A stretch of 64,000 bases of DNA, taken from Prevotella sp. GTDB taxonomy: Bacteria > Bacteroidota > Bacteroidia > Bacteroidales > Dysgonomonadaceae. Positions 1,651 to 55,477 of this stretch are shown piece after piece. The stretch lies in the NCBI GenBank assembly GCA_031285625.1, contig JAITVV010000080.1, positions 32,001 to 96,000 of the forward strand. Direction: 5' to 3'. The notes under the pieces were generated by a model. That model saw only the letters and a list, made by a program, of their open reading frames with translations, had not been told where the DNA came from and searched no databases. Made by a program: the position numbers and the translations under genes. Position 1 is the stretch's first letter; each line of letters starts with the position of its first letter.

Positions 1651-2658
1651 ATGGACTATTATAGGCAAACCCAGTTAAAAGATTACAATTCATTTAAAAC
1701 AGAAGCTCAGGCTAAAATATTTTGTAAGCCCAGCACTATTCAAGAGCTTCGTCAGTGTTTATCAGATTTTCCAGACGAAAAAAAACTCATTATCGGGGGA
1801 GGATGTAACATCTTCTTTACGAAAGACTTTGACGGATTGGTTATTCATCCGTATATAAAAGGCCTTCGCGAAATATCGGATGAGGAAGAAGAGGATGAGG
1901 ATATATTTCTTGAGGTAAATGCTTCTGAAGATTGGGATGAGTTTGTAGCTTATTGCGTAGAGCGGGGATTTGCCGGACTTGAGAACCTTTCATATATCCC
2001 TGGTACTGTCGGGGCTGCTCCCATACAGAATATTGGAGCTTATGGAGCTGAGGTGAAGGATGTGATTCGTGAAGTAGTGGCTGTAGATATGGAAACTGGA
2101 GAAACAGTTTCTTTCTCTAATGCAGAATGTGAATTTGGCTACAGGGATAGTGTCTTTAAGCGAACAAATAAATATCTTGTTATCTCAGTTGTATTTCACC
2201 TGAAGCGGACATTTGTCTATATTCCTAAGTATGCAGATTTGAACAAAGAACTCGAAGATTTCGAAGAACCTTCTATTCAGGATGTACGTGATGCGGTAAT
2301 ACGTGTCCGTCAGCGGAAATTGCCTGATGAAAAAGTTTTACCAAACGCCGGCAGTTTTTTCAAAAATCCATATATTAGCAAAGAGCAAGCGGATAAGATT
2401 TTGATTGATTATCCTAACTTACCTGCATATCCATTGAAAGATGGTTTGATAAAGACCTCGGCTGCATTTCTTATCGACAAAGCCGGCTATAAAGGTAAGA
2501 GAAATGATAATGTCGGTACGTACCCTAATCAGCCACTTATTATAGTGAATTATGGTACTTCGGATGGTAATGAGATATTGAGCTTTATGCATGAGGTACA
2601 GAAAGCAGTGAAAGATACCTTTGGTATAGAATTAGAACCGGAAGTCAGAATATTTTAA
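1651..2658 (+). CDS. murB: UDP-N-acetylenolpyruvoylglucosamine reductase
   Basis: IGGGCNIFF, GLENLSYIPGTVGAAPIQNIGAYG, FGYRDS, PNAGSFFKNP, LEPEV motifs. Confidence 0.96.
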   Translation: MDYYRQTQLKDYNSFKTEAQAKIFCKPSTIQELRQCLSDFPDEKKLIIGGGCNIFFTKDFDGLVIHPYIKGLREISDEEEEDEDIFLEVNASEDWDEFVAYCVERGFAGLENLSYIPGTVGAAPIQNIGAYGAEVKDVIREVVAVDMETGETVSFSNAECEFGYRDSVFKRTNKYLVISVVFHLKRTFVYIPKYADLNKELEDFEEPSIQDVRDAVIRVRQRKLPDEKVLPNAGSFFKNPYISKEQADKILIDYPNLPAYPLKDGLIKTSAAFLIDKAGYKGKRNDNVGTYPNQPLIIVNYGTSDGNEILSFMHEVQKAVKDTFGIELEPEVRIF

Positions 2659-2673
2659 CAATAATATAGAAAC

Positions 2674-3978
2674 ATGGCATCATTTATTATAGAAGGAGGT
2701 TGTCACCTCACAGGAGAGATAACACCACAAGGAGCTAAGAACGAAGCATTACAGGTAATATGTGCAACATTACTGACTCCAGAAGAAGTTATAATAGAAA
2801 ATATTCCTGACATATTAGACGTGAATAACTTGATAGCCCTGCTGGGTGAGATGGGAGTAGAAACAAGGCGAATGGGAGAAGATACATGGTCTTTCAAGGC
2901 TGAAAATGTAAATATTGATTATTTGCAGACTCCGGAATTCTTCAAGAAAAGTGCTTCCCTTCGCGGTTCGGTTATGATCATTGGCCCGTTGGTGGCTCGC
3001 TTTGGAAGAGCTATATTGCCAAAACCTGGAGGAGATAAAATAGGCCGTCGCCGTTTAGACACACACTTTATAGGTATACAAAAATTGGGAGCTGATTTTA
3101 ATTATAATGATGCTCAACAGATATACAATATTTCTGCAGACAGGCTTAAAGGAACATATATGTTATTGGATGAGGCTTCGGTGACAGGTACAGCAAACAT
3201 AATTATGGCAGCAGTATTAGCCGAAGGAGAAACAACTATATATAATGCAGCCTGCGAACCATATATACAGCAGCTCTGCCGTATGCTTACCCAGATGGGG
3301 GCAAAAATAGATGGGCAAGGTTCCAATTTGTTACGGATCGAGGGAGTCAAAGTATTATCTGGTGCAAAGCATCGTATCTTGCCGGATATGATCGAGATTG
3401 GTAGCTTTATTGGTATGGCGGCTATTACAGGCTCTGAAGTAACCATAAAAGATGTTGCATATGACGACTTGGGAATAATACCCGATACATTTCAGCGATT
3501 AGGTATCCAGTTGGAACGAAGAGGAGATGATATATATATACCTGCTCAGAAGGAATATACAATAGATACTTTTATAGATGGCTCTATTTTGACTATTGCT
3601 GATGCGCCATGGCCGGGACTAACTCCCGATCTTATAAGTGTATTGCTTGTTGTTGCAACACAAGCTAAGGGTAGTGTGCTGATACATCAGAAAATGTTTG
3701 AAAGCCGTCTATTCTTTGTTGATAAGTTAATTGACATGGGAGCTCAGATAATACTATGCGATCCTCATCGTGCTACGGTTATTGGTACGGGTAAACGCCC
3801 TATGCGTGCTACTACAATGACTTCTCCCGATATTCGTGCGGGAATAGCATTACTTATCGCTGCTATGTGTGCCGATGGTAAAAGTACTATACATAATATT
3901 GAGCAAATAGACCGTGGATATCAGAATATTGATGTCCGTCTTAACCAGTTGGGGGCTAATATTATGAGATTAGATTAA
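2674..3978 (+). CDS. murA: UDP-N-acetylglucosamine 1-carboxyvinyltransferase
   Basis: GAKNEAL, LRGS, PGGDKIGRR, SVTGTAN, PDIRAG, IDRGY motifs. Confidence 0.96.
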   Translation: MASFIIEGGCHLTGEITPQGAKNEALQVICATLLTPEEVIIENIPDILDVNNLIALLGEMGVETRRMGEDTWSFKAENVNIDYLQTPEFFKKSASLRGSVMIIGPLVARFGRAILPKPGGDKIGRRRLDTHFIGIQKLGADFNYNDAQQIYNISADRLKGTYMLLDEASVTGTANIIMAAVLAEGETTIYNAACEPYIQQLCRMLTQMGAKIDGQGSNLLRIEGVKVLSGAKHRILPDMIEIGSFIGMAAITGSEVTIKDVAYDDLGIIPDTFQRLGIQLERRGDDIYIPAQKEYTIDTFIDGSILTIADAPWPGLTPDLISVLLVVATQAKGSVLIHQKMFESRLFFVDKLIDMGAQIILCDPHRATVIGTGKRPMRATTMTSPDIRAGIALLIAAMCADGKSTIHNIEQIDRGYQNIDVRLNQLGANIMRLD

Positions 3979-4070
3979 AATCAATGTTTTACTTTCACAA
4001 TAAACTTTATTATTTATTACGAATGCACCATTCTTATTCGGGATGGTGAAATGTCTTAATTCTTTACACT

Positions 4071-4712
4071 ATGACAGAAAATGAAAAGTATCTCTTTGAT
4101 CATTTCCTTATTAGTATAAAATCAGGATTTGAGTCTTTAGATGATATTATTACTGATGCCCTCGAAGCTGTAGAAGACGAAGGGTGGGAGAGTGAAATCT
4201 CAGAGGAGTGGATCAAGGAAACCTTAAGTATTCAATATGCAAAAAATGAGGCTGAAAGCAAAGACTGGATACACCCTACCGATACTGAAAAATTGCATAC
4301 AGTCTTTGATAATCTTTGTAAACAGAAAATAGTAGCACTTCACAATGCAGGCTATACGCAGTCAGATGCTATCTATGATGTTCAAGACGTTTGGCAGGAT
4401 TTAGAAGATAATGGGATAAAACCTGTTGGCTATTGCTATTACCATGGACAGGACCTAGAGCGTGTAATAGAAACAGGTACTCTTTGTATTGGCTTTTATG
4501 GAGAAAAAGAAAAGAATGACAAAGAAGCCATTATTATAGGGCATAAGATTGTTTCTCTTTTAAAAGAACAAGGATTCACTATCGAATGGGATGGATCAGC
4601 TTCAAAAAGGATTGAAATTCATGATTTCAACTGGCAAAATCTTTTTACATCAGATGAAGATGTAGAAGATAAATGGGGCTATGATCGTGTTTTGGAATTG
4701 ATGGAAGAATAA
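4071..4712 (+). CDS. Hypothetical acidic protein (DUF6891-like)
   Basis: 213-aa ORF with IVALHNAGYTQSD, GYCYYHGQDLER and WDGSASKRI; family name recalled from memory. Confidence 0.7.
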   Translation: MTENEKYLFDHFLISIKSGFESLDDIITDALEAVEDEGWESEISEEWIKETLSIQYAKNEAESKDWIHPTDTEKLHTVFDNLCKQKIVALHNAGYTQSDAIYDVQDVWQDLEDNGIKPVGYCYYHGQDLERVIETGTLCIGFYGEKEKNDKEAIIIGHKIVSLLKEQGFTIEWDGSASKRIEIHDFNWQNLFTSDEDVEDKWGYDRVLELMEE

Positions 4713-4718
4713 TATTTA

Positions 4719-4758
4719 TACAATAAGAAGTGTTAAATAAATAACACTTCTTATTGTA
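4719..4758. terminator. Bidirectional hairpin between convergent genes
   Basis: Perfect 17-bp inverted repeat tacaataagaagtgtta / taacacttcttattgta with a 6-nt loop. Confidence 0.75.
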
Positions 4759-4777
4759 GTATGGTAGTAGTCAAACT

Positions 4778-6190
4778 TTACTCAGCTGTAATTTCCTCTG
4801 CATATATCCAGCATTTGGTTTTCGGATAATCTGCAAACTTCCTGTTGGGTGCTCCAAAAAAAAATGAATAACGATATATCCTTTTAGTATTATCTGTAGG
4901 AGTGAATATCAATTGCCGATATTCCGGTTTTGCACTGTAATATACATCCGGATTCCCGTGTGTAGCCCAACTTTTTGTTACAGTATGATTATTGCTGGAC
5001 CGATTGGGGGCTCCTCCCCCTGCATTATAAGCAACAGTATGCATAATCATAACATTGTCATTCCCTGATGAATATACGGTGCCGTTATGTTTTATTTGAA
5101 TATCTGTATAATCCAAATTTTCATTTGATTTAGCATAGAATCTCAGTGAATATCTTCCATCAAATGTAGTTACAGCAAATTCTGCACCCCCACTTGTCGG
5201 TGTCATAGGTCCAAGATACGTCCGAGTCTCAAAAGAAGCTCCACCATGTCCGACTTTTGCTTCGCAGTTTTTTCCTAAAAATGATACTGGAAATACAGTT
5301 TCAACAGGGGAAGATGCTTTTGGTTTGCCCGTTACGGCATATGTTATTCTACCATTACCATATTCCAGGGTACCGGGTTGTAACGTATAATATAATCCAT
5401 TGATGGGTCCTAGCTTTTCTCCTCCCGAATAAGATGCTCCATTTCCACCTGTATATGGTATCTCCATAACTCCATTATATTCCTGATCTAAATTATATCT
5501 GGAAGGGCTTAACTGGGCATTATTACATAACAAAGCTTCTATTGCCGGAGGATTGGTTTTGCGGTCTGCAAGCATGAACCAGGATGTCTTGTTCCAGTAG
5601 AGAAAACCTTTTACAGCAAAATCTTTATGTTCGCCAGTATTGTAAACAAGTAGTCCTTCTGCCGGATTTGGTATTGTTTCTACATCGGTAGAGCTCTTTA
5701 GAGTTACACGAGGAAGTAATACCCCTTTATTCTTAGATACAACATTAAAGGCAGCTGAAGGATCTCCGTTGGATGTGCCTACACTGACTCGTCCCATTTG
5801 AAATATGTCTTGATTGTTTCTGGTGGGAATACTATCTCCATGGATATCATGATTGGAAACCCTCCATGGACTTACAATATCAAGTCTTGCCCATGTTGTG
5901 CCATTCCAGTACTCAACAGAGTTAGTTTTAATATCATATACTGTGAGTCCTTTTGCTTTTTCGATTTCATCTTCGTTTGTTAGCTCATCCAAGTCAAGAC
6001 CTAGTTTTTCATCTGTTGTCAACTGGGGCAGTCTGATTCCCCCTTTAGTAGTAAGGGTAGATAATTCTAAAATGGAAAATCTTTGGGGTTCAATCCCATC
6101 ACCAATAGTAACCTGGGCGTGTAATTTTGTGCTGCATGCTATCATAAAAGATAGGATCAGCAGGGCATTCTTTGTTAGTTTTGTTCTCAT
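4778..6190 (-). CDS. Secreted or surface protein with an internally repeated Bacteroidetes module
   Basis: Signal peptide ending LHA-QVTIG; two related blocks (KGGIRLPQL...GLTVYD and KGVLLPRVTL...GLLVYNT); beta-rich C-terminus. Confidence 0.75.
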   Translation of the reverse strand: MRTKLTKNALLILSFMIACSTKLHAQVTIGDGIEPQRFSILELSTLTTKGGIRLPQLTTDEKLGLDLDELTNEDEIEKAKGLTVYDIKTNSVEYWNGTTWARLDIVSPWRVSNHDIHGDSIPTRNNQDIFQMGRVSVGTSNGDPSAAFNVVSKNKGVLLPRVTLKSSTDVETIPNPAEGLLVYNTGEHKDFAVKGFLYWNKTSWFMLADRKTNPPAIEALLCNNAQLSPSRYNLDQEYNGVMEIPYTGGNGASYSGGEKLGPINGLYYTLQPGTLEYGNGRITYAVTGKPKASSPVETVFPVSFLGKNCEAKVGHGGASFETRTYLGPMTPTSGGAEFAVTTFDGRYSLRFYAKSNENLDYTDIQIKHNGTVYSSGNDNVMIMHTVAYNAGGGAPNRSSNNHTVTKSWATHGNPDVYYSAKPEYRQLIFTPTDNTKRIYRYSFFFGAPNRKFADYPKTKCWIYAEEITAE

Positions 6191-47320: not shown

Positions 47321-48259
47321 ATGAAGCTTAACTATATAATATTATTCGTTTTATTTCTTGTTCTCGAAACCACTAGTGTTTATGCACAATGGGATACACA
47401 GATCAGTCAATATTGGCGGATGAAGAATTTCTATAATCCTTCATTTATAGCAGGGGAGAATGTTATAGAGGCTTCTCTATTGCATCGTCGCCAATGGGTG
47501 GGGATCGATAATGCTCCTGTAACATCACTAGTTTCGCTTAACATGCCTCTGAAATTTCTTGGAAAAGAACATGGAGTGGGGGTTATGGTAGTAAATGATA
47601 AGCTTGGTCTGTTTTCTAATACATCGATGATGGGACAATATTCCTATAGATTTAAATTCAAGAAAAACAGATATTTGAGTATCGGATTACAAGCCGGATT
47701 GATAGATGTTGGTTTCGATGCTTCAGATATAGAAATACCGGACGACCAAAAGACAGGTATAGAACTGCCTCCGGCAATAGGAGATAAGAAACTGGATGTA
47801 GGCTTAGGTATTTCGTGGGTAACGCCAAAATATTATGTAGGAGTGTCCACAACCCATATTTTAGAACCAAAATTTGATATGGATGATGAACATTCTACCT
47901 CTATTGGGCGTATATATTATATGGTAGCAGGATACAATATTCAGATGAATAATCCGTTAATAGAATTGCAACCTTCTGCTCTCTTTAAATCTGATGCTGT
48001 AACCTATCAATTAGACGTAACGGCAAAAGTTGAATATAAAAAGATGTTCAATGGAGGAATATCTTGGAGAAAAGGAGACGGTTTTGTATTTTTGTTGGGC
48101 GTAAAAATAAAAAATATAGATGCGGGCTATTCATACGACCTTTCGACATCAGCGATATCGAAGGTTAGTAGTGGAAGCCATGAGTTGTTTATACGCTATT
48201 GTCTTCCTCTCGAAAAGAGAAAAGATAGGCATACCGGCAAGAGTATAAGAATACTTTAA
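47321..48259 (+). CDS. porP: Type IX secretion membrane protein PorP/SprF
   Basis: SQY....FYNPS..G, HRRQWVGI..AP.T, GYSYD, GSHELFIRY. Confidence 0.92.
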   Translation: MKLNYIILFVLFLVLETTSVYAQWDTQISQYWRMKNFYNPSFIAGENVIEASLLHRRQWVGIDNAPVTSLVSLNMPLKFLGKEHGVGVMVVNDKLGLFSNTSMMGQYSYRFKFKKNRYLSIGLQAGLIDVGFDASDIEIPDDQKTGIELPPAIGDKKLDVGLGISWVTPKYYVGVSTTHILEPKFDMDDEHSTSIGRIYYMVAGYNIQMNNPLIELQPSALFKSDAVTYQLDVTAKVEYKKMFNGGISWRKGDGFVFLLGVKIKNIDAGYSYDLSTSAISKVSSGSHELFIRYCLPLEKRKDRHTGKSIRIL

Positions 48260-48343
48260 GAGATTGATTATATACAAGTTTACAAACATACAAATAAAAT
48301 AAACTAAAGGCCGCTGGGATAGTTCAGGGCATTGAAAGTAAAT

Positions 48344-49765
48344 ATGAAACATTTGTTTTTTGCAATAATAGCTTCACTTGCATTGTTTACATCCTGCGGT
48401 AAATCTGTGGGATCAGGCATCGGAGGTGAGGTTACCGGCGAGAAAGGATCGTCGTGGGCAGAACCTTCACCCTATGGTATGGTATTGGTTTCGAGAGGTT
48501 CAATAGAAATGGGACCTGCCGAAAACGATTCTTTGTGGGATATCAAAGCTAATCCGAAAGGGGTATCTGTTGATAACTTCTGGATGGATGAAACTGAGGT
48601 TACCAATTCTAAGTATCGTCAGTTTGTTTATTGGGTTCGCGATTCTATTATCCGGGAACGGCTTGCCGATCCTGCTTTTGGCGGTGATGAAACATTCAAG
48701 ATCACAGAAGATAGATATGGAGATCCTGTAAAACCGTACCTGAACTGGAAGAAAGCTATTCCTAAAAGACCACTGGAAGAGGAAGAACTGGCTATAAACA
48801 GTGTTACGTTCCTGCATCCTATAACAGGTGTACGTGGTCTTGACCCTAGGCAAATGAACTTTAAATACGAATGGTTTGACTATACAGAAGCTGCAAAGCG
48901 TAGAAACAGGCTTATACCTCAGGAAAGAATCCTTAATACAGATATTACTGTGGATCCTAACCAGTCTGTTATGATATCGAAAGATACTGCCTACATTAAT
49001 GATGAAGGGCTTCCTGTAAACGAAACTATTGTGCGTCTGTTGAGTTCCCTGTTCGATTTTGTGCATACCAAGATTGTAAACATATATCCGGATACTACCG
49101 TTTGGGTAAATGACTTTAATAATGCATATAACGAACCTTATATGCGTATGTATTTTACACATACAGGCTATAATGACTATCCTGTTGTTGGGGTAACATG
49201 GGAGCAGGCAACAGCATTTTGTGAGTGGAGAACTGCTTTTTACAGGATGGGGCAACCTAGAAATGGACGTCCTATCGAGAATTTCCGCCTGCCTACAGAA
49301 GGTGAATGGGAGTTTGCAGCGCGTAATGGTAAAACAGAAAACAAATATCCGTGGGATAAAGAAGGAACAATGGATGAAAAGGCATGCTTTATGGCGAACT
49401 TTAAACCGGGAGAAGGTAACTATACGAAAGATGGTAACCTGATTCCTGCACGTGTTGCCTCTTATGTTCCAAACCGCTTTGGAGTCTACGATCTTGCCGG
49501 TAACGTATCGGAATGGACATCTACAGCTTACACCGAATCAGGAACTGCGCAAATGAATGATATGAATCCTCAATATAAATATGATGCTGCTAAAGAAGAC
49601 CCCTATTCTATAAAGAAGAAGGTTGTAAAAGGTGGTTCATGGAAAGATATAGGTCGTAATATCAGAGGAGATATGAGAGAGGGTGAATTCCAAAATCAGC
49701 CCCGCTCATACATCGGGTTCAGATGTGTGAGAACTCAGATCGGTTTTGCAAAATCTAAGAAGTGA
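48344..49765 (+). CDS. porK: Type IX secretion lipoprotein PorK/GldK (FGE-sulfatase fold)
   Basis: Lipobox FTSC; PYGMVLV, MDETEVTN..YRQFV.WVRDSI, YPVVGVTW.QA, RLPTEGEWE, ANFKP, AGNVSEW, GGSWKD, YIGFRCV. Confidence 0.93.
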   Translation: MKHLFFAIIASLALFTSCGKSVGSGIGGEVTGEKGSSWAEPSPYGMVLVSRGSIEMGPAENDSLWDIKANPKGVSVDNFWMDETEVTNSKYRQFVYWVRDSIIRERLADPAFGGDETFKITEDRYGDPVKPYLNWKKAIPKRPLEEEELAINSVTFLHPITGVRGLDPRQMNFKYEWFDYTEAAKRRNRLIPQERILNTDITVDPNQSVMISKDTAYINDEGLPVNETIVRLLSSLFDFVHTKIVNIYPDTTVWVNDFNNAYNEPYMRMYFTHTGYNDYPVVGVTWEQATAFCEWRTAFYRMGQPRNGRPIENFRLPTEGEWEFAARNGKTENKYPWDKEGTMDEKACFMANFKPGEGNYTKDGNLIPARVASYVPNRFGVYDLAGNVSEWTSTAYTESGTAQMNDMNPQYKYDAAKEDPYSIKKKVVKGGSWKDIGRNIRGDMREGEFQNQPRSYIGFRCVRTQIGFAKSKK

Positions 49766-49773
49766 TTGAAAAG

Positions 49774-50811
49774 ATGAAAAAAATATATCAAATAGCAGCC
49801 TTATTAATTTGCTCTCTGTGTTTTGCATCTTTGGCATATGCACAGGATCAACCGGAGTCTCTCCGCGACAGGCTGGCTAAGAAACAACAGCAACAACAAG
49901 GTACTGCGCAAGATAATGGTCCTAAGGTACCTCAATTATCTGTCCGTGCCGAAATGATGAATGATACACAAACTCAGGATTTGTCGAATGCAACATGGAT
50001 ACGCGAAGTATACCGTTTTCTTGACCTTACAAAGGGAAAGAATGCAGCTTTATTTTATCCGGTTCAACCCGTTGGAAATCAGATGAATTTCTATACAATG
50101 ATTTTTAAGCTGATGGGTGATGGAAATTTGGTTGCCTATGATTGGAATAATGGAAAGGATCTATTTGTAGATAAGCTCCGGGTTAATTTTGGAGATGTTC
50201 TGGAAAGGCTGGAGATACCATATCAAAAAAATGGAAATGCCTATTCTTATGATGAATTTAGTATTCCTAGCAATGAGGCATTGGGCTATTACATCAAAGA
50301 GGCATGGTATTTCGATCAGTCGAACTCTGTACTGGGTGTAAAAACAGTGGCTATTTGTCCTGTCTTGTTTCGTCAGGAATATGTTGATGGAATCGACTTG
50401 GGTACAGATCAGGGATTGCGTGAGCCTCAGTTCTGGATTCCTTACGAGAATATTCGTCCGTATGCTGCCCGTATGCCCATTATGGCTTCTGATAAGAATA
50501 ATGTGATGAATAAGACTATCGATGACTATTTCCGTATGCGATTGTATGAAGGAGAAATATACATGACTACAAATATGGAAAATAAGGTCTTGAGTCAGAA
50601 ATATACAACACCAGAAGCTTTAAAAGAAGCTCAGGAAAAGATTGAAGGTGAATTAAAGGAGTTTGATAAGGAATTATGGGTGTTGAATGATTCAATCAAT
50701 AATTTACCTGTAAATAATAAGTCGAAGAATACTAAGACAAAGGCGCCTAAAATGAGTAAGCCTAAAAATTCATCATCTGGTGCTACATATTCGGCCAGAG
50801 ACAGGAGGTAG
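49774..50811 (+). CDS. porN: Type IX secretion ring protein PorN/GldN
   Basis: Signal peptide; W.REVYR.LDL....NA.LFYP, YYIKE.WYFD, AICPVL, FW.PY, IE.ELKEFDKELW. Confidence 0.9.
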   Translation: MKKIYQIAALLICSLCFASLAYAQDQPESLRDRLAKKQQQQQGTAQDNGPKVPQLSVRAEMMNDTQTQDLSNATWIREVYRFLDLTKGKNAALFYPVQPVGNQMNFYTMIFKLMGDGNLVAYDWNNGKDLFVDKLRVNFGDVLERLEIPYQKNGNAYSYDEFSIPSNEALGYYIKEAWYFDQSNSVLGVKTVAICPVLFRQEYVDGIDLGTDQGLREPQFWIPYENIRPYAARMPIMASDKNNVMNKTIDDYFRMRLYEGEIYMTTNMENKVLSQKYTTPEALKEAQEKIEGELKEFDKELWVLNDSINNLPVNNKSKNTKTKAPKMSKPKNSSSGATYSARDRR

Positions 50812-50838
50812 ACTTCATAAATCGATATAGTGAATGGG

Positions 50839-50865
50839 AAGAGTAGCATTTTGCTACTCTTTTTT
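50839..50865 (+). terminator. Terminator of porPKN
   Basis: aagagtagca-ttt-tgctactctt-tttt. Confidence 0.8.
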
Positions 50866-50980
50866 CATTAATTGATATACGTATATTACATTATTATATA
50901 ATATTTATTCTGTATATGTTATATTGATACAATCAATTCTGATTTAGTGTTAATATGTTTTGTTTTTTGTCTTTTATCTC

Positions 50981-51069
50981 TATCTTTGTACTGTGATTTA
51001 GGTTATTTAATTTATTATAAGATATAGACCAGAGAATACCATGATACCATAGGTGTTCTCTGTTTTTTT
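50981..51069 (+). ncRNA. Candidate small RNA or 5' attenuator
   Basis: TATCTTTG promoter element (50981-50988), then hairpin cagagaatacc / ggtgttctctg (51030-51062) and a T7 run, all upstream of the 51116 start. Confidence 0.45.
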
Positions 51070-51115
51070 ATGTCTTATAGGTAATAAAGATTGTTTAATT
51101 AAGAAAAGATTGGTT

Positions 51116-51481
51116 ATGAAAAGGTTATTAATTTTATTTGCTGCTATTGCAGGTTTTAGTATTAGTTCATTTGCCGAAAAGGATTATGAGGTACTTTGGG
51201 TATTGAATAACAAATCGACTTTCAATACAGTTACAGACTATGTACAAGCTAGCCCTAATCAACAGGCATTGATGAAGAATATATTTTATGATTCAGCAGA
51301 GAAACTCAAAGATGCACTTATTGAGAACGATCTGCAAGCTGCCGAAAAGGCATTATACTTTAATCTTGTAAATGTAAAATCGGTTTTGACTGTTGACCAG
51401 TATAAAAAGTATTTGACAATATTAAATGCTACAATACATAATCAGCAAGATAAGTATTTGGCACTTTCCAAGAATAAGTAA
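51116..51481 (+). CDS. Small secreted helical hypothetical protein
   Basis: Signal peptide ending SFA; C-terminal VLT.DQYKKYL.ILNAT block seen in Bacteroidales hypothetical proteins (recalled). Confidence 0.8.
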   Translation: MKRLLILFAAIAGFSISSFAEKDYEVLWVLNNKSTFNTVTDYVQASPNQQALMKNIFYDSAEKLKDALIENDLQAAEKALYFNLVNVKSVLTVDQYKKYLTILNATIHNQQDKYLALSKNK

Positions 51482-51495
51482 GAAAGTAATTTATA

Positions 51496-51537
51496 AAATA
51501 AAAGAGGATATCTGATTTCAGATATCCTCTTTTATTT
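51496..51537. terminator. Bidirectional terminator overlapping the stop of the convergent gene
   Basis: aaataaaagaggatatctga-tt-tcagatatcctcttttattt, perfect 20-bp stem. Confidence 0.85.
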
Positions 51538-52591
51538 GTAATCTTTTTTTCTTTATATTATCTATTATTAATACTATAACTAAATAGATAGGCATAAGCA
51601 TAAGGAAAAAGAAAAATATAAAAATCATATATTCGGCTCTTCCTGAGGCGTATTTTCCTATTATAAAATTAGTCAGTGAGCATGAAATAAGATATAAGAC
51701 CCAATAAATAAACGGAGCCATAATGCTTCCGGCGATTACTACAGGAGAGAATCGTTTGTTCGGATTTTTTATTCTATATCTTATAATAAAGTAAATATGA
51801 AAACTAATTAATAAAATGGATAAAATAAGAAAAAGACCTTCTGGTGTTAGCTTTATCAGCATTTTTGCTAACCAGCTTATTTCAGGTTTATAACTGATTA
51901 TAAGTTCATCTTGCGGTAATTCTGTAAAGTGAAGATGTGTAACAGTGCTGGTAAGGATTGAGTCCGAACTGATATTTGTTTCAAAGATACCTTTTATATT
52001 CGATGTGTTGATCTCTACATCAAGGCTACCAAAAGATCGCCAGTAACGTGCAGGTTTGAGATTATATTGTATTTTAAATTTTTTTATCAGGTCCCAATTA
52101 TCAACTTCTGCTTGTGCTGTATATTCTACATGTATTGTATGTTCCCCTTTTGTTAGGTCTATTTCAAAGTATTTCAGTCCTATGATATTCGGAACATCTT
52201 CCTTAGGATATCTTAGATAGTTATCTAAAGAGTCAATCCATTGAAGCGCATTCGGATTTTCATATGTAGATGGTATTCTTAGTACAGGTATAGTTTGATT
52301 GTCTAGCCATACTGAAAATGATCCGTCTTCAGCATAGCGATTAGTCATAGTGTCAAATATCATCGGAATTTGTTTTCCGTCACGGTCTGATTTTATTCTA
52401 TATACTACAGTGAACTTTACAGTATAGAAGTCTATAAAAGTTATGAGCAAATGTTCGTGAAGTATATCTATATCTTTACTAGAATATGCCTCAGAGGTAA
52501 TATCTCCTTTATGAATCGGAGAACTCATGTTTGCATATACTGATGTGTATAATGTAAAAAGAGTAATAAGTATTACAAGCCGTTTTAGCAT
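51518..52591 (-). CDS. Exported-domain membrane protein
   Basis: Signal peptide (VYA-NMSSP), soluble domain with YNLKPARYWRSFG, three C-terminal TM helices. Confidence 0.75.
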   Translation of the reverse strand: MLKRLVILITLFTLYTSVYANMSSPIHKGDITSEAYSSKDIDILHEHLLITFIDFYTVKFTVVYRIKSDRDGKQIPMIFDTMTNRYAEDGSFSVWLDNQTIPVLRIPSTYENPNALQWIDSLDNYLRYPKEDVPNIIGLKYFEIDLTKGEHTIHVEYTAQAEVDNWDLIKKFKIQYNLKPARYWRSFGSLDVEINTSNIKGIFETNISSDSILTSTVTHLHFTELPQDELIISYKPEISWLAKMLIKLTPEGLFLILSILLISFHIYFIIRYRIKNPNKRFSPVVIAGSIMAPFIYWVLYLISCSLTNFIIGKYASGRAEYMIFIFFFFLMLMPIYLVIVLIIDNIKKKRLQIKEDI

Positions 52592-52596
52592 CCTAA

Positions 52597-53493
52597 TTAC
52601 CTTAGGTTATTAATTATATGTCCTTTTGTTGGAAATATCTGATTCAGAGTCTTTTTGATACTTTGCTTCTCTTCGGCTGTTGCTTGTAAACTGATTTGTA
52701 CTATTTCATTCATTTTTGTTTCTCCAATGATCGTAAGCAACGGTGATGCAGGTCGCGCATCATATAATTTCTGAAGATCGGGTAAACATTCTATAATACG
52801 TATTCTCCCACGTGATGCATTTGCAGCCATTTCATCTAATCCCATACGATGATAATTATACCAGAATGCATGAAAACTCTTAGAGCTCTCGTCAGTTAAG
52901 GCTACAGCAAGATCATAACGGTTGTCATTCTTTCCGGAGAAAGGTTCCCATCCCTTTGTATTAAGGGATTGTGCCATATTAGCGATTTCCATTGCTCTTG
53001 CAAAATAGGGTGCCCCTCCATTCAGCGAAAAAGAATCAAAATCCAACCCTATAACAATGTTAGCATAAAAAGAAAGTACAGCAACCAGATTGCTATTTAA
53101 TACAATGTTATTTAGATCGAGAGATTCACCTTGGGTATAAGTAAATTCAAATTTTGTATCTCTGAAATTCAGTAGGGTAGCGATGTAAGTTGAATTATAT
53201 ACTGGACGTCTCGACGAAACCTGTATTTCGGCAGAGAAACTATTATCTGCAGTCATCTCATTCATCGAAATGACTATAGTACAATCGATACGTTCATTCT
53301 TGTTGAAGTTTGTATCTGTCCATTTCTGATCATTCAATAATTGATTGACTGATCTTTCTAATGAAGAAAATAAAGCTTCGTTTGCTGCAGGTAGTTTACG
53401 GGTATTTAATGTAAGCTTCGCGTTTAGCTCCTGCGCCTTTATAGTAGCGGATATAAGTATTACTGATATGATGAATAAAACTAGTATTCTCAT
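52597..53493 (-). CDS. DUF4835 family protein (T9SS-associated, PorD-like)
   Basis: Signal then QELNAKL, WT...F...ERI.C, SRRPVYNSTY, FYA..IVIGLDFDSF, Y.YHR.GLD; directly behind porE. Confidence 0.8.
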   Translation of the reverse strand: MRILVLFIISVILISATIKAQELNAKLTLNTRKLPAANEALFSSLERSVNQLLNDQKWTDTNFNKNERIDCTIVISMNEMTADNSFSAEIQVSSRRPVYNSTYIATLLNFRDTKFEFTYTQGESLDLNNIVLNSNLVAVLSFYANIVIGLDFDSFSLNGGAPYFARAMEIANMAQSLNTKGWEPFSGKNDNRYDLAVALTDESSKSFHAFWYNYHRMGLDEMAANASRGRIRIIECLPDLQKLYDARPASPLLTIIGETKMNEIVQISLQATAEEKQSIKKTLNQIFPTKGHIINNLR

Positions 53494-53494
53494 C

Positions 53495-55477
53495 TTATTC
53501 AAGATTATAGGTTACACTCAATACTTTAAACTCTGTGCGGCGATTTATCTGGTCCGCCATTTCTTGTTGCTCAGGTGTTAATCCCTCAATGAAATCCTCA
53601 GTGAGTATTTCGCCCTCTTTAAGGAAATCATACTTCTTAATTACAGCCTTAGTTACATTTTTTGGTTGCGATTTTCCTTTTCCAACGGCTGTAAGCCGCT
53701 CTTTGGCTATACCGGCAGCAATCAGATAGCTGACTACCGATTCTGCTCTTCGCTGAGATAGTTTAATATTATATTCGTCAGATCCTTTTCTGTCAGTATG
53801 AGCTGATAATTCGATCGTAACATTCGGATTTATATTGAGCAGATCTATTAACCCATCGAGCTCTTCTTTCGATTCAGGACGTAGAGTTGCTTTATCGAAG
53901 TCATAGAATATATTCTCCAATACTACCGGCTTATTGATAGGTGTGAGGATGAAATCTATCAGGTATGTTGAATCCTTCTCTGTGGTTATGGTTTTTAGCG
54001 ACATTCTGGTATTCAGATGATCTTTTGCACTGGCAAGGAATACATAATCTACGCCTTGATTAACGTCCATTTTATAGGTTCCATCATTCTTCCCCGGAAA
54101 TCTCATATTAGTACCGTCTCTTCCCACTACACGTATTGTTGCATTGGTTATAAATTCGTCATCAGTATCTACTATATAACCTTCCGCAACTGTAGTTATT
54201 ACAGGGTAGACAAAGGAATAGATATGGTCAAATCCTTTTCCATCTCCTCTGTTAGAACTGAAGAACCCACTTTCTTTCTCTCCTTCAAATGTGATTCCAA
54301 AATCGTCACCTTGAGAATTTATCGGTGACCTCAGGTTTTCTATAGTCCAGCTTTTTGTCTTTTTGTTATAATCAGCCTTATATATGTCCAGTCCTCCCAT
54401 GCCAACATGCCCATCAGAGGAAAAATACAGAGTGGAGTCATTTCTCATATAAGGAAACATTTCATCTCCTGCTGTATTTATATCCGGTCCCAGGTTTTCC
54501 ACGTATTCTACCAGATCGCCAACCATACTTGCCCGCCATATATCTTTACCGCCATGTCCCCCTGGCATATCTGATACAAAGTATAGGAACTCTCCAGATG
54601 GAGTGATAGTCGGATGTGCATAAACGCTGGTAGAATCTCTTTTATTGATTTCTATCTTGGTCCCTGCTCCCCAAGATCCGGAAGAACGATAAGAGACGTA
54701 GATAGCCGGAAAAGAGGTATTAATAGAATCTAGTTTCGTCTGAGTGAAATACATGGCTGTACCTGATGCTGAAAAAGATGTAGTACCTTCATCGGAAGAG
54801 GTGTTTATTGCTGATTCAAGATGTTCCGGCTTCATCCAGTTACCACTTTCATCCTTTCGCGCCATAAATACGTCGTTGAGTTTGGACCCCGTAATGTTGC
54901 TTATTGTATCTCCGATCACTTCATCCCTGTTTGATGTAAAATATAGTTGGTCGTAGTCCGGAGGAAGTAACATCGGGCTAAATTCTCCTCTTCTCGAATT
55001 TAGCAATTCCATCCTCTTTACGGTGTGAAGAGTTGGATTTGCTTTCCATTCGGGAGCTATCTTAGAACCTTCCAGTCCATTAAGAGCAAACTTATTATTT
55101 GGGTACAGTTTAAGGAAATCAGTATAATATTTGATGGCCTGTTTGTAATCTCCTGCTTTTTGTAACGATCTGGCATATTGCAGGTTGATGGTGCTATCAT
55201 TTACCTTATAGCGAACAGCGTTTGCATAAGCAGCATTCGCCCGTAAAGGGTTGTTGATAAGGCGATAACTTTCGGCCATCCTGTGAGCAATCTCTCCCCG
55301 GAATTCCCTTTTCTTAGCAGGGGTTTGACGATATATCTTTCGATACATATCAGCTGCTACAAAGTACTCGCCTTGTGCAAATTTCCGGTCTGCATCTTCC
55401 AACTTGACCTGTTTGCAAGACCATACAGATAATAGTAGTGTGAGAATTCCCAGTGTATAGGATATATATCTTTTCAA
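53495..55477 (-). CDS. porE: T9SS peptidoglycan-anchor lipoprotein PorE (TPR-PD40-carboxypeptidase-regulatory-OmpA)
   Basis: TTG start, lipobox VWSC, TPR helices, LYFTSNR / LYFVSD / LYFSSDG repeats, ENIFYDFDKA, SAHTD...LSQRRAES, NRRTEF. Confidence 0.85.
   Translation of the reverse strand: MKRYISYTLGILTLLLSVWSCKQVKLEDADRKFAQGEYFVAADMYRKIYRQTPAKKREFRGEIAHRMAESYRLINNPLRANAAYANAVRYKVNDSTINLQYARSLQKAGDYKQAIKYYTDFLKLYPNNKFALNGLEGSKIAPEWKANPTLHTVKRMELLNSRRGEFSPMLLPPDYDQLYFTSNRDEVIGDTISNITGSKLNDVFMARKDESGNWMKPEHLESAINTSSDEGTTSFSASGTAMYFTQTKLDSINTSFPAIYVSYRSSGSWGAGTKIEINKRDSTSVYAHPTITPSGEFLYFVSDMPGGHGGKDIWRASMVGDLVEYVENLGPDINTAGDEMFPYMRNDSTLYFSSDGHVGMGGLDIYKADYNKKTKSWTIENLRSPINSQGDDFGITFEGEKESGFFSSNRGDGKGFDHIYSFVYPVITTVAEGYIVDTDDEFITNATIRVVGRDGTNMRFPGKNDGTYKMDVNQGVDYVFLASAKDHLNTRMSLKTITTEKDSTYLIDFILTPINKPVVLENIFYDFDKATLRPESKEELDGLIDLLNINPNVTIELSAHTDRKGSDEYNIKLSQRRAESVVSYLIAAGIAKERLTAVGKGKSQPKNVTKAVIKKYDFLKEGEILTEDFIEGLTPEQQEMADQINRRTEFKVLSVTYNLE

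Follow-up and report, generated by a model that had tools for sequence, protein, structure and literature searches.

Ring and motor genes for type IX secretion lie at separate loci in Dysgonomonas, and an assembly gap conceals the motor genes in one draft genome

Results

The porP-porK-porN Cluster

The DNA under study, a window of 64,000 nucleotides (contig JAITVV010000080.1, positions 32,001 to 96,000) from a draft genome of a gut bacterium deposited as Prevotella sp. and placed in the Dysgonomonadaceae (GenBank assembly GCA_031285625.1, here G000), carries three co-directional genes for a type IX secretion system (T9SS) at 47321-50811. On the plus strand, porP (47321..48259; an outer-membrane protein of the PorP/SprF family, 312 residues) is followed by porK (48332..49765; the ring lipoprotein) and porN (49774..50811; the periplasmic ring subunit, 345 residues from its ATG, with a signal peptide). 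PorP matched TIGR03519 at 243.6 bits (cut-off 90.55) and PF11751 at 229.9, PorK matched TIGR03525 at 525.9 bits (cut-off 350) and the FGE-like domain PF03781 at 171 bits, and PorN matched TIGR03523 at 190.9 bits (cut-off 85.9) and PF19841 at 165.6. The matches span nearly the whole models (positions 3–407 of 408 in TIGR03525 for PorK), and they bear out the original prediction, made from the sequence alone, that all three genes are intact and full length. Canonical operons have porL and porM, the genes of the motor, between porK and porN; direct reading of the window gives at this site only the predicted 8-nt spacer (49766..49773, plus strand), with the stop codon of porK (TGA, 49763-49765) before it and the ATG of porN (49774-49776) after it. 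We conclude with high confidence that a genus-wide split of the operon, together with an assembly gap in G000, accounts for the absent motor, and that the window holds an ordinary, vertically inherited T9SS ring module.

The open reading frame of porK begins at a TTG (48332), and the start is likely the ATG at 48344, with the lipobox LFTSC. The lipobox is at residue 22, and its column is cysteine in all 12 canonical PorK sequences of the genus and in eight of eight from other families. PorN starts with a signal-like sequence, as a secreted periplasmic protein should. Downstream of porN, at 50837..50866 on the plus strand, RNA folding found a hairpin, at 50837-50863, followed by a U-run that resembles an intrinsic terminator (-24.3 kcal/mol, z -7.55, none of 200 shuffles as good), in agreement with the predicted terminator; a scan for sigma-70 and terminator consensus sequences did not list it. 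Across the G000 assembly, porP is the sole gene of the PorP family and porN the sole match to GldN, the counterpart of PorN in the gld nomenclature.

The window PorK aligned with the Porphyromonas gingivalis PorK chains 9ots and 9mzu at 629 bits and is 76–96% identical across the genus. We compared the window genes with those of three genus members for nonsynonymous (dN) and synonymous (dS) substitutions per site, a comparison in which dS was saturated and, in four of the nine cases, not computable. For porK, dN was 0.024–0.056 against a saturated dS above 2; for porP, dN was 0.15–0.22 and dS 1.4–1.8; for porN, dN was 0.09–0.19, with dS too saturated to compute. The window genes show no sign of decay: relaxed selection on porK and porN, which the original prediction had named as a sign of it, finds no backing, dN being far below dS for porP and porK.

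A Genus-Wide Split of the Operon

The abutment of porK and porN recurs throughout Dysgonomonas. The proposed check of synteny across the genus found the porP-porK-porN block of the window type unbroken in 32 of the 34 further Dysgonomonas genomes, the two misses being G001 (51% complete, no hit) and G010 (88% complete, only a cross-hit to a paralog). Among 80 named loci, PorK lay directly upstream of PorN in all 24 with a PorN identity of at least 56%, the aligned end of PorK falling 8–61 nt ahead of the aligned start of PorN; 21 of these are named Dysgonomonas and include D. mossii, D. gadei, D. hofstadii, and D. termitidis, among others. At the 56 named loci with a PorN identity of at most 46% (Tannerellaceae, Parabacteroides, Tannerella, and others), PorM was upstream in every case, and K never stood directly before N (0/56).

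The canonical order K-L-M-N was present at 11 of 11 loci from other genera of the same family and at eight of the nine other-family loci that we fetched, the ninth being cut at a contig end. The gene porP stood at the head of the operon at all 11 same-family loci and at seven of the eight from other families. The GldL, GldM, and GldN profiles had no match in 14 control genomes and were validated on relatives instead. A scan of the family placed GldL and GldN on a single contig, within ~3 kb of each other, in 40 of the 41 non-genus genomes having both; within the genus, the long type of GldN was unlinked from GldL in eight of eight. GldN occurs in the genus in two forms, a long one of ~340–390 residues, which is the window type and never lies near GldL, and a short, lower-scoring one of ~290 residues next to GldL. 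GldL itself was found in 23 of the 24 sampled genus genomes, the single miss being 51% complete. From the genus, named-locus, and family comparisons, the abutment of K and N is therefore derived and fixed throughout Dysgonomonas, and G000 is in no way peculiar in it. A search of full-text literature, with supplementary files outside it, returned no description of a layout split into porKN and porLM.

The Second Locus and the Partners of the Motor

A second locus houses the motor genes, flanked there in most species by a divergent gene pair. We use crown group for the later-branching Dysgonomonas species that have a second PorK-like gene, K', and a second PorN-like gene, N', and earlier-branching for G009, G014, G015, and G020. 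At 12 of 12 crown-group loci the order is PFOR (pyruvate:ferredoxin oxidoreductase), K' (~720 residues), PorL, PorM, and N' (~290 residues). The four earlier-branching species (loci L104–L107) have porL-porM at the second locus without K' or N', and PFOR was seen immediately upstream of porL-porM only in G015.

This arrangement bears on whether the porP-porK-porN cluster of the window could have acquired a function apart from PorLM, for example as an envelope scaffold or as a device driven by TonB/ExbBD, leaving the motor to K' and N'. The motor genes are indeed flanked by their own K' and N' at all 12 crown-group loci, with dN of 0.075–0.09 against dS of 1.4–1.9 indicating purifying selection on both paralogs, and transcription of the window cluster is separate from that of the motor genes. 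The earlier-branching species, however, have no ring genes besides K and N of the window type, which must therefore serve the separately encoded motor. The window K, moreover, shares 63–78% identity with the K of canonical operons in the family's other genera and clusters with these K proteins in the tree, which makes it their vertical ortholog, and the window N is likewise orthologous to the canonical N. PorK also keeps the lipobox cysteine and the cysteine for attaching client proteins, both of which K' has lost. Among the window's open reading frames, domain scans found no ExbBD or TonB genes beside the cluster, which speaks against the predicted TonB/ExbBD-coupled apparatus. We therefore regard an independent role as very unlikely; by homology with P. 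gingivalis, PorK and PorN would form an outer-membrane-associated ring driven by the separately encoded PorLM motor.

The confinement of the extra ring pair to the crown group implies that it was either gained once or lost several times. The PorK tree places K' within the family clade (support 91/99) but in a polytomy, its stem measuring 1.25 changes per site; an origin of K' by duplication in the genus and one by transfer between members of the family would look alike there. The PorN tree places N' with 3% support. On one reading, the whole of K-L-M-N was duplicated, L-M was lost reciprocally at the old site, and K' and N' diverged fast; alternatively, K' and N' were gained later around L-M.

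The Motor Genes Are Missing from the Assembly, Not from the Organism

The original prediction had noted that the window lacks porL and porM. This holds for the window and for all 96 contigs of G000: profile searches with GldL and GldM gave no match in the whole assembly, and tblastn searches with the PorL and PorM proteins of a conspecific had no hit at E ≤ 1. The assembly has 4.84 Mb, a smallest contig of 2566 bp, a completeness of 94.25%, and a contamination of 3.85%, and it looks like a draft genome binned from a metagenome. Taken at face value, the absence of both genes from an assembly of this completeness might mean that the strain truly lost porL-porM through a deletion or rearrangement at the second locus, leaving a PorKN ring that is motor-less or decaying. 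In the same direction, L, M, N', and the genes next to them, which with what follows make up ~29 kb in the related genome G043, have no ortholog anywhere in G000.

The second locus of G000, though, stops at the end of a contig and not at a junction with other DNA. Contig C18 encodes residues 1–449 of K' on its minus strand (C18:1358..3) and then ends. The five genes upstream of K' on C18 are syntenic with those of G043, G022, and G041, and the last two with those of G011, which has a shorter contig piece. Synteny with G043 picks up again on contig C28, ~300 bases from its end; since C18 ends within K' and synteny resumes near the end of C28, the missing stretch is bounded by two contig ends. 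In another relative, G003, the genes downstream of N' correspond to the middle of contig C5 of G000, and synteny is not kept on that side.

The end of C18 is itself anomalous. Its terminal 344 bases (C18:1-344) match the K' of a different genus member (locus L012) at 99.7% identity, against only 73% for that of the conspecific metagenome contig L032. The end is a chimera resulting from an inter-species assembly tangle in K', a gene common to co-occurring relatives; such a match to another species is typical of graph tangles, accounts for the break in the contig, and indicates that the sample contained a second Dysgonomonas species.

L032 shares 96.6% identity with C18:1-3540, with 120 differences, 92 of them in the chimeric tail. 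From there it extends into what remains of K' (738 residues), PorL (297 residues; GldL_N), PorM (522 residues; all four GldM domains), and N' (290 residues). We took this conspecific contig as the reference instead of the locus of a relative, L021, which is only ~78–82% identical to G000 there. C18 was present in part in 12 public runs, from insect, termite, or ant samples or from organisms given by code, and for the four runs that cover C18 best (X1, X11, X2, and X12) we placed the contigs on L032 at a likeness of at least 90%. Contigs covered 30 of 30 bins of L032 in all four runs. Single contigs span the C18 break into porL and porM in X11 (2189-5362, 7 differences) and X2 (2209-5362, 28 differences). 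The contigs of X1 carry the C18 alleles at 26 of 26 variant sites listed, out of 28 ahead of the chimeric tail, and continue through K', porL, porM, and N' at unchanged depth (47–53). X11, X2, and X12 come from other studies.

The organism thus has the PorL/PorM motor, seen in L032 and in the contigs of all four runs, and the absence of porL and porM from G000 is an assembly or binning gap. With the strain's own alleles leading into the motor genes at equal depth, and with strong purifying selection on porK and porN, a true loss is extremely improbable. The original prediction had left two ways open: that of a motor encoded elsewhere holds, and that of a motor-less or differently energised ring is not supported.

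Conserved Cysteines of PorK and PorN

Both cysteine motifs pointed out in the original prediction are present: ACFMANFKP contains PorK Cys352 (numbered from the TTG at 48332), and AICPV contains PorN Cys195 (numbered from the ATG at 49774). They had been connected with a reported inter-subunit disulfide between K and N. Published evidence assigns the PorK residue another partner. Window Cys352 aligned with P. gingivalis PorK Cys356, the homologous residue, which according to the available text of PMC12365241 forms an essential native disulfide with PorG Cys232. The accessible portion of PMC12635249 describes Flavobacterium johnsoniae GldK Cys343 as joining SprF and PorG to the track by a disulfide, and terms this client cysteine completely invariant across GldK/PorK. 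The K–N disulfides in the part of PMC12421860 that was available are engineered cross-links, and the inter-subunit bond named in the original prediction is therefore unsupported. The client-attachment cysteine was kept in all 20 canonical K sequences that we aligned (12/12 from the genus and 8/8 from other families), and we infer that PorK Cys352 is a disulfide attachment point for outer-membrane clients.

PorN Cys195, a single cysteine in the mature protein, is kept in 42 of the 44 PorN and N' sequences compared across the order: all 12 N and all 12 N' sequences of the genus, 10 of 11 from the same family, and 8 of 9 from other families. The accessible parts of the literature on K–N and PorK–PorG disulfides state no partner or role for it.

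A PorK Paralog with a Predicted Barrel

Besides the partial copy of K' in G000, which lies outside the window (C18:3-1358, minus strand), full copies are found at L032:2129-4345 and L021:8913-11075. In 12 of 12 K' sequences the lipobox cysteine is replaced, and in the same 12 the client cysteine is Leu or Met. The hidden Markov model score of K' is 368, just above the TIGR03525 cut-off of 350; because both cysteines are replaced and the score barely exceeds the cut-off, we did not class K' as a canonical PorK.

K' has an extra N-terminal region of ~300 residues. This region belongs to no Pfam family, and a sequence-profile search of the PDB gave 0 hits at E ≤ 1; the sole Pfam match, to AcrIIA4 at E 0.016, was taken as chance. 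A sequence search with the region gave 355 hits at E ≤ 0.001, ten of which we scanned against Pfam: eight have a C-terminal OmpA domain, one is a further K', and one is without a family. Because eight of the ten end in an OmpA domain, the region corresponds to the N-terminal part of OmpA-domain proteins, presumably a membrane barrel. Its AlphaFold model has a mean predicted local distance difference test (pLDDT) score of 62.8, the strands being confident and the loops not, and resembles eight-stranded barrels, among them OmpA's transmembrane domain, Ail, NspA, and OmpX, with a target-normalised template modelling score of up to 0.74. On this modelled structure, K' appears to be a PorK paralog with an N-terminal OmpA-like eight-stranded barrel in place of the lipid anchor, and without the client cysteine.

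The full-text literature that we searched, supplements being outside it, has no description of a second PorK/PorN pair in Bacteroidales or of a barrel–PorK fusion. Supplementary Fig. 6 of PMC12365241, on the conservation of cysteines in PorK and PorG, may bear on the exception that K' presents, to judge from the part of that paper that was available.

Other Components and Neighboring Genes

The remainder of the T9SS is represented in G000 by the translocon SprA/Sov (2723.7 bits) and the shuttle PorV (501.2 bits), and hits for cargo with the T9SS C-terminal domain are few, five of type A and two of type B. The sortase PorU (NF033707) scored above cut-off in none of 35 genus genomes; the same model matches four of five genomes outside the genus, including both from other genera of the family. 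The attachment complex may thus be reduced in the genus, with PorV present and PorU not found.

Two further T9SS genes lie 1.8 kb downstream of the cluster on the opposite strand: porD (52597..53502, minus; NF052317 340.8 bits, cut-off 170; PF16119) and porE (53495..55477, minus; NF052230 995.4 bits, cut-off 600; TPR, PD40, and OmpA domains). Two open reading frames separate porN from porD, one of 142 residues with a signal-like N terminus (51053-51481, plus strand) and one of 357 residues for a multi-pass membrane protein (51518-52591, minus strand), and neither has a significant match to a Pfam or NCBIfam family.

Discussion

Our results are mainly corrective. A T9SS ring without a motor would have been remarkable; what the window presents instead is a draft gap laid over a real, genus-wide split. 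Dysgonomonas has the ancestral porP-K-L-M-N operon in two parts, one of ring genes that remain together with K abutting N and one of the motor genes porL-porM, at a second locus directly after a PFOR gene. In G000, this second locus is cut at the contig end inside its first gene, and its remainder, ~29 kb in the nearest complete relative, was left unassembled or unbinned. The case is a caution for presence/absence calls from metagenome-assembled genomes, and, as the split shows, T9SS ring genes and motor genes need no co-transcription.

Several points weigh against this account. No read or contig of G000 itself has porL or porM, and the proof consists of the conspecific contig and the Logan contigs of public runs. 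Of the latter, X1 may be the source sample, and its contigs then test the assembly instead of lending independent support. The chimeric tail of C18 might in principle be a real recombinant allele and not a misassembly. The dN/dS values are rough because dS is saturated. The interaction of PorKN with PorLM when the two are encoded apart is deduced from homology. Finally, with no PorU found in the genus, its system differs from the P. gingivalis model in further respects as well.

The split layout and the barrel-fused, cysteine-less K' make a modest new variation on a known T9SS. K' adjoins the motor genes in a genus with cultured strains, and it provides a natural test of a model from 2025 by which the PorK/GldK track, as it moves, must be tied covalently to outer-membrane proteins; specialists will find it more interesting than the finding in the window. 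We tentatively suggest, in the knowledge that the idea is somewhat more likely wrong than right, that in the crown group, where K' and N' accompany the motor genes as a second ring pair, the client barrel is hard-wired into K'. Such a pair might form a distinct ring or provide anchors in a mixed one, and it would be a natural equivalent of the covalent link between PorG and PorK in a T9SS without PorU.

Among the closest known systems is the porP-K-L-M-N operon of P. gingivalis, with its PorKN ring and PorLM motor. The same five families are present in Dysgonomonas, and PorK shares the lipoprotein signal and the FGE-like fold. The two differ in that Dysgonomonas has porL-porM at another locus after the PFOR gene instead of between K and N, in that PorU was not found in Dysgonomonas, and in the small cargo set of G000. 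In the gldKLMN system of F. johnsoniae, the GldN paralog GldO is, according to the available text of PMC9127263, a precedent for a second, partly redundant ring subunit beside the core genes. Dysgonomonas differs from it in having both K and N duplicated, with the paralogs flanking the motor genes and the canonical pair unlinked from them, and in a K' that has a new N-terminal barrel domain, as modelled, and lacks the two conserved cysteines. Set beside the disulfide attachment of PorK to PorG and of GldK to SprF/PorG, as described in the accessible parts of PMC12365241 and PMC12635249, the window PorK keeps the attaching cysteine, and K' has Leu or Met in its place.

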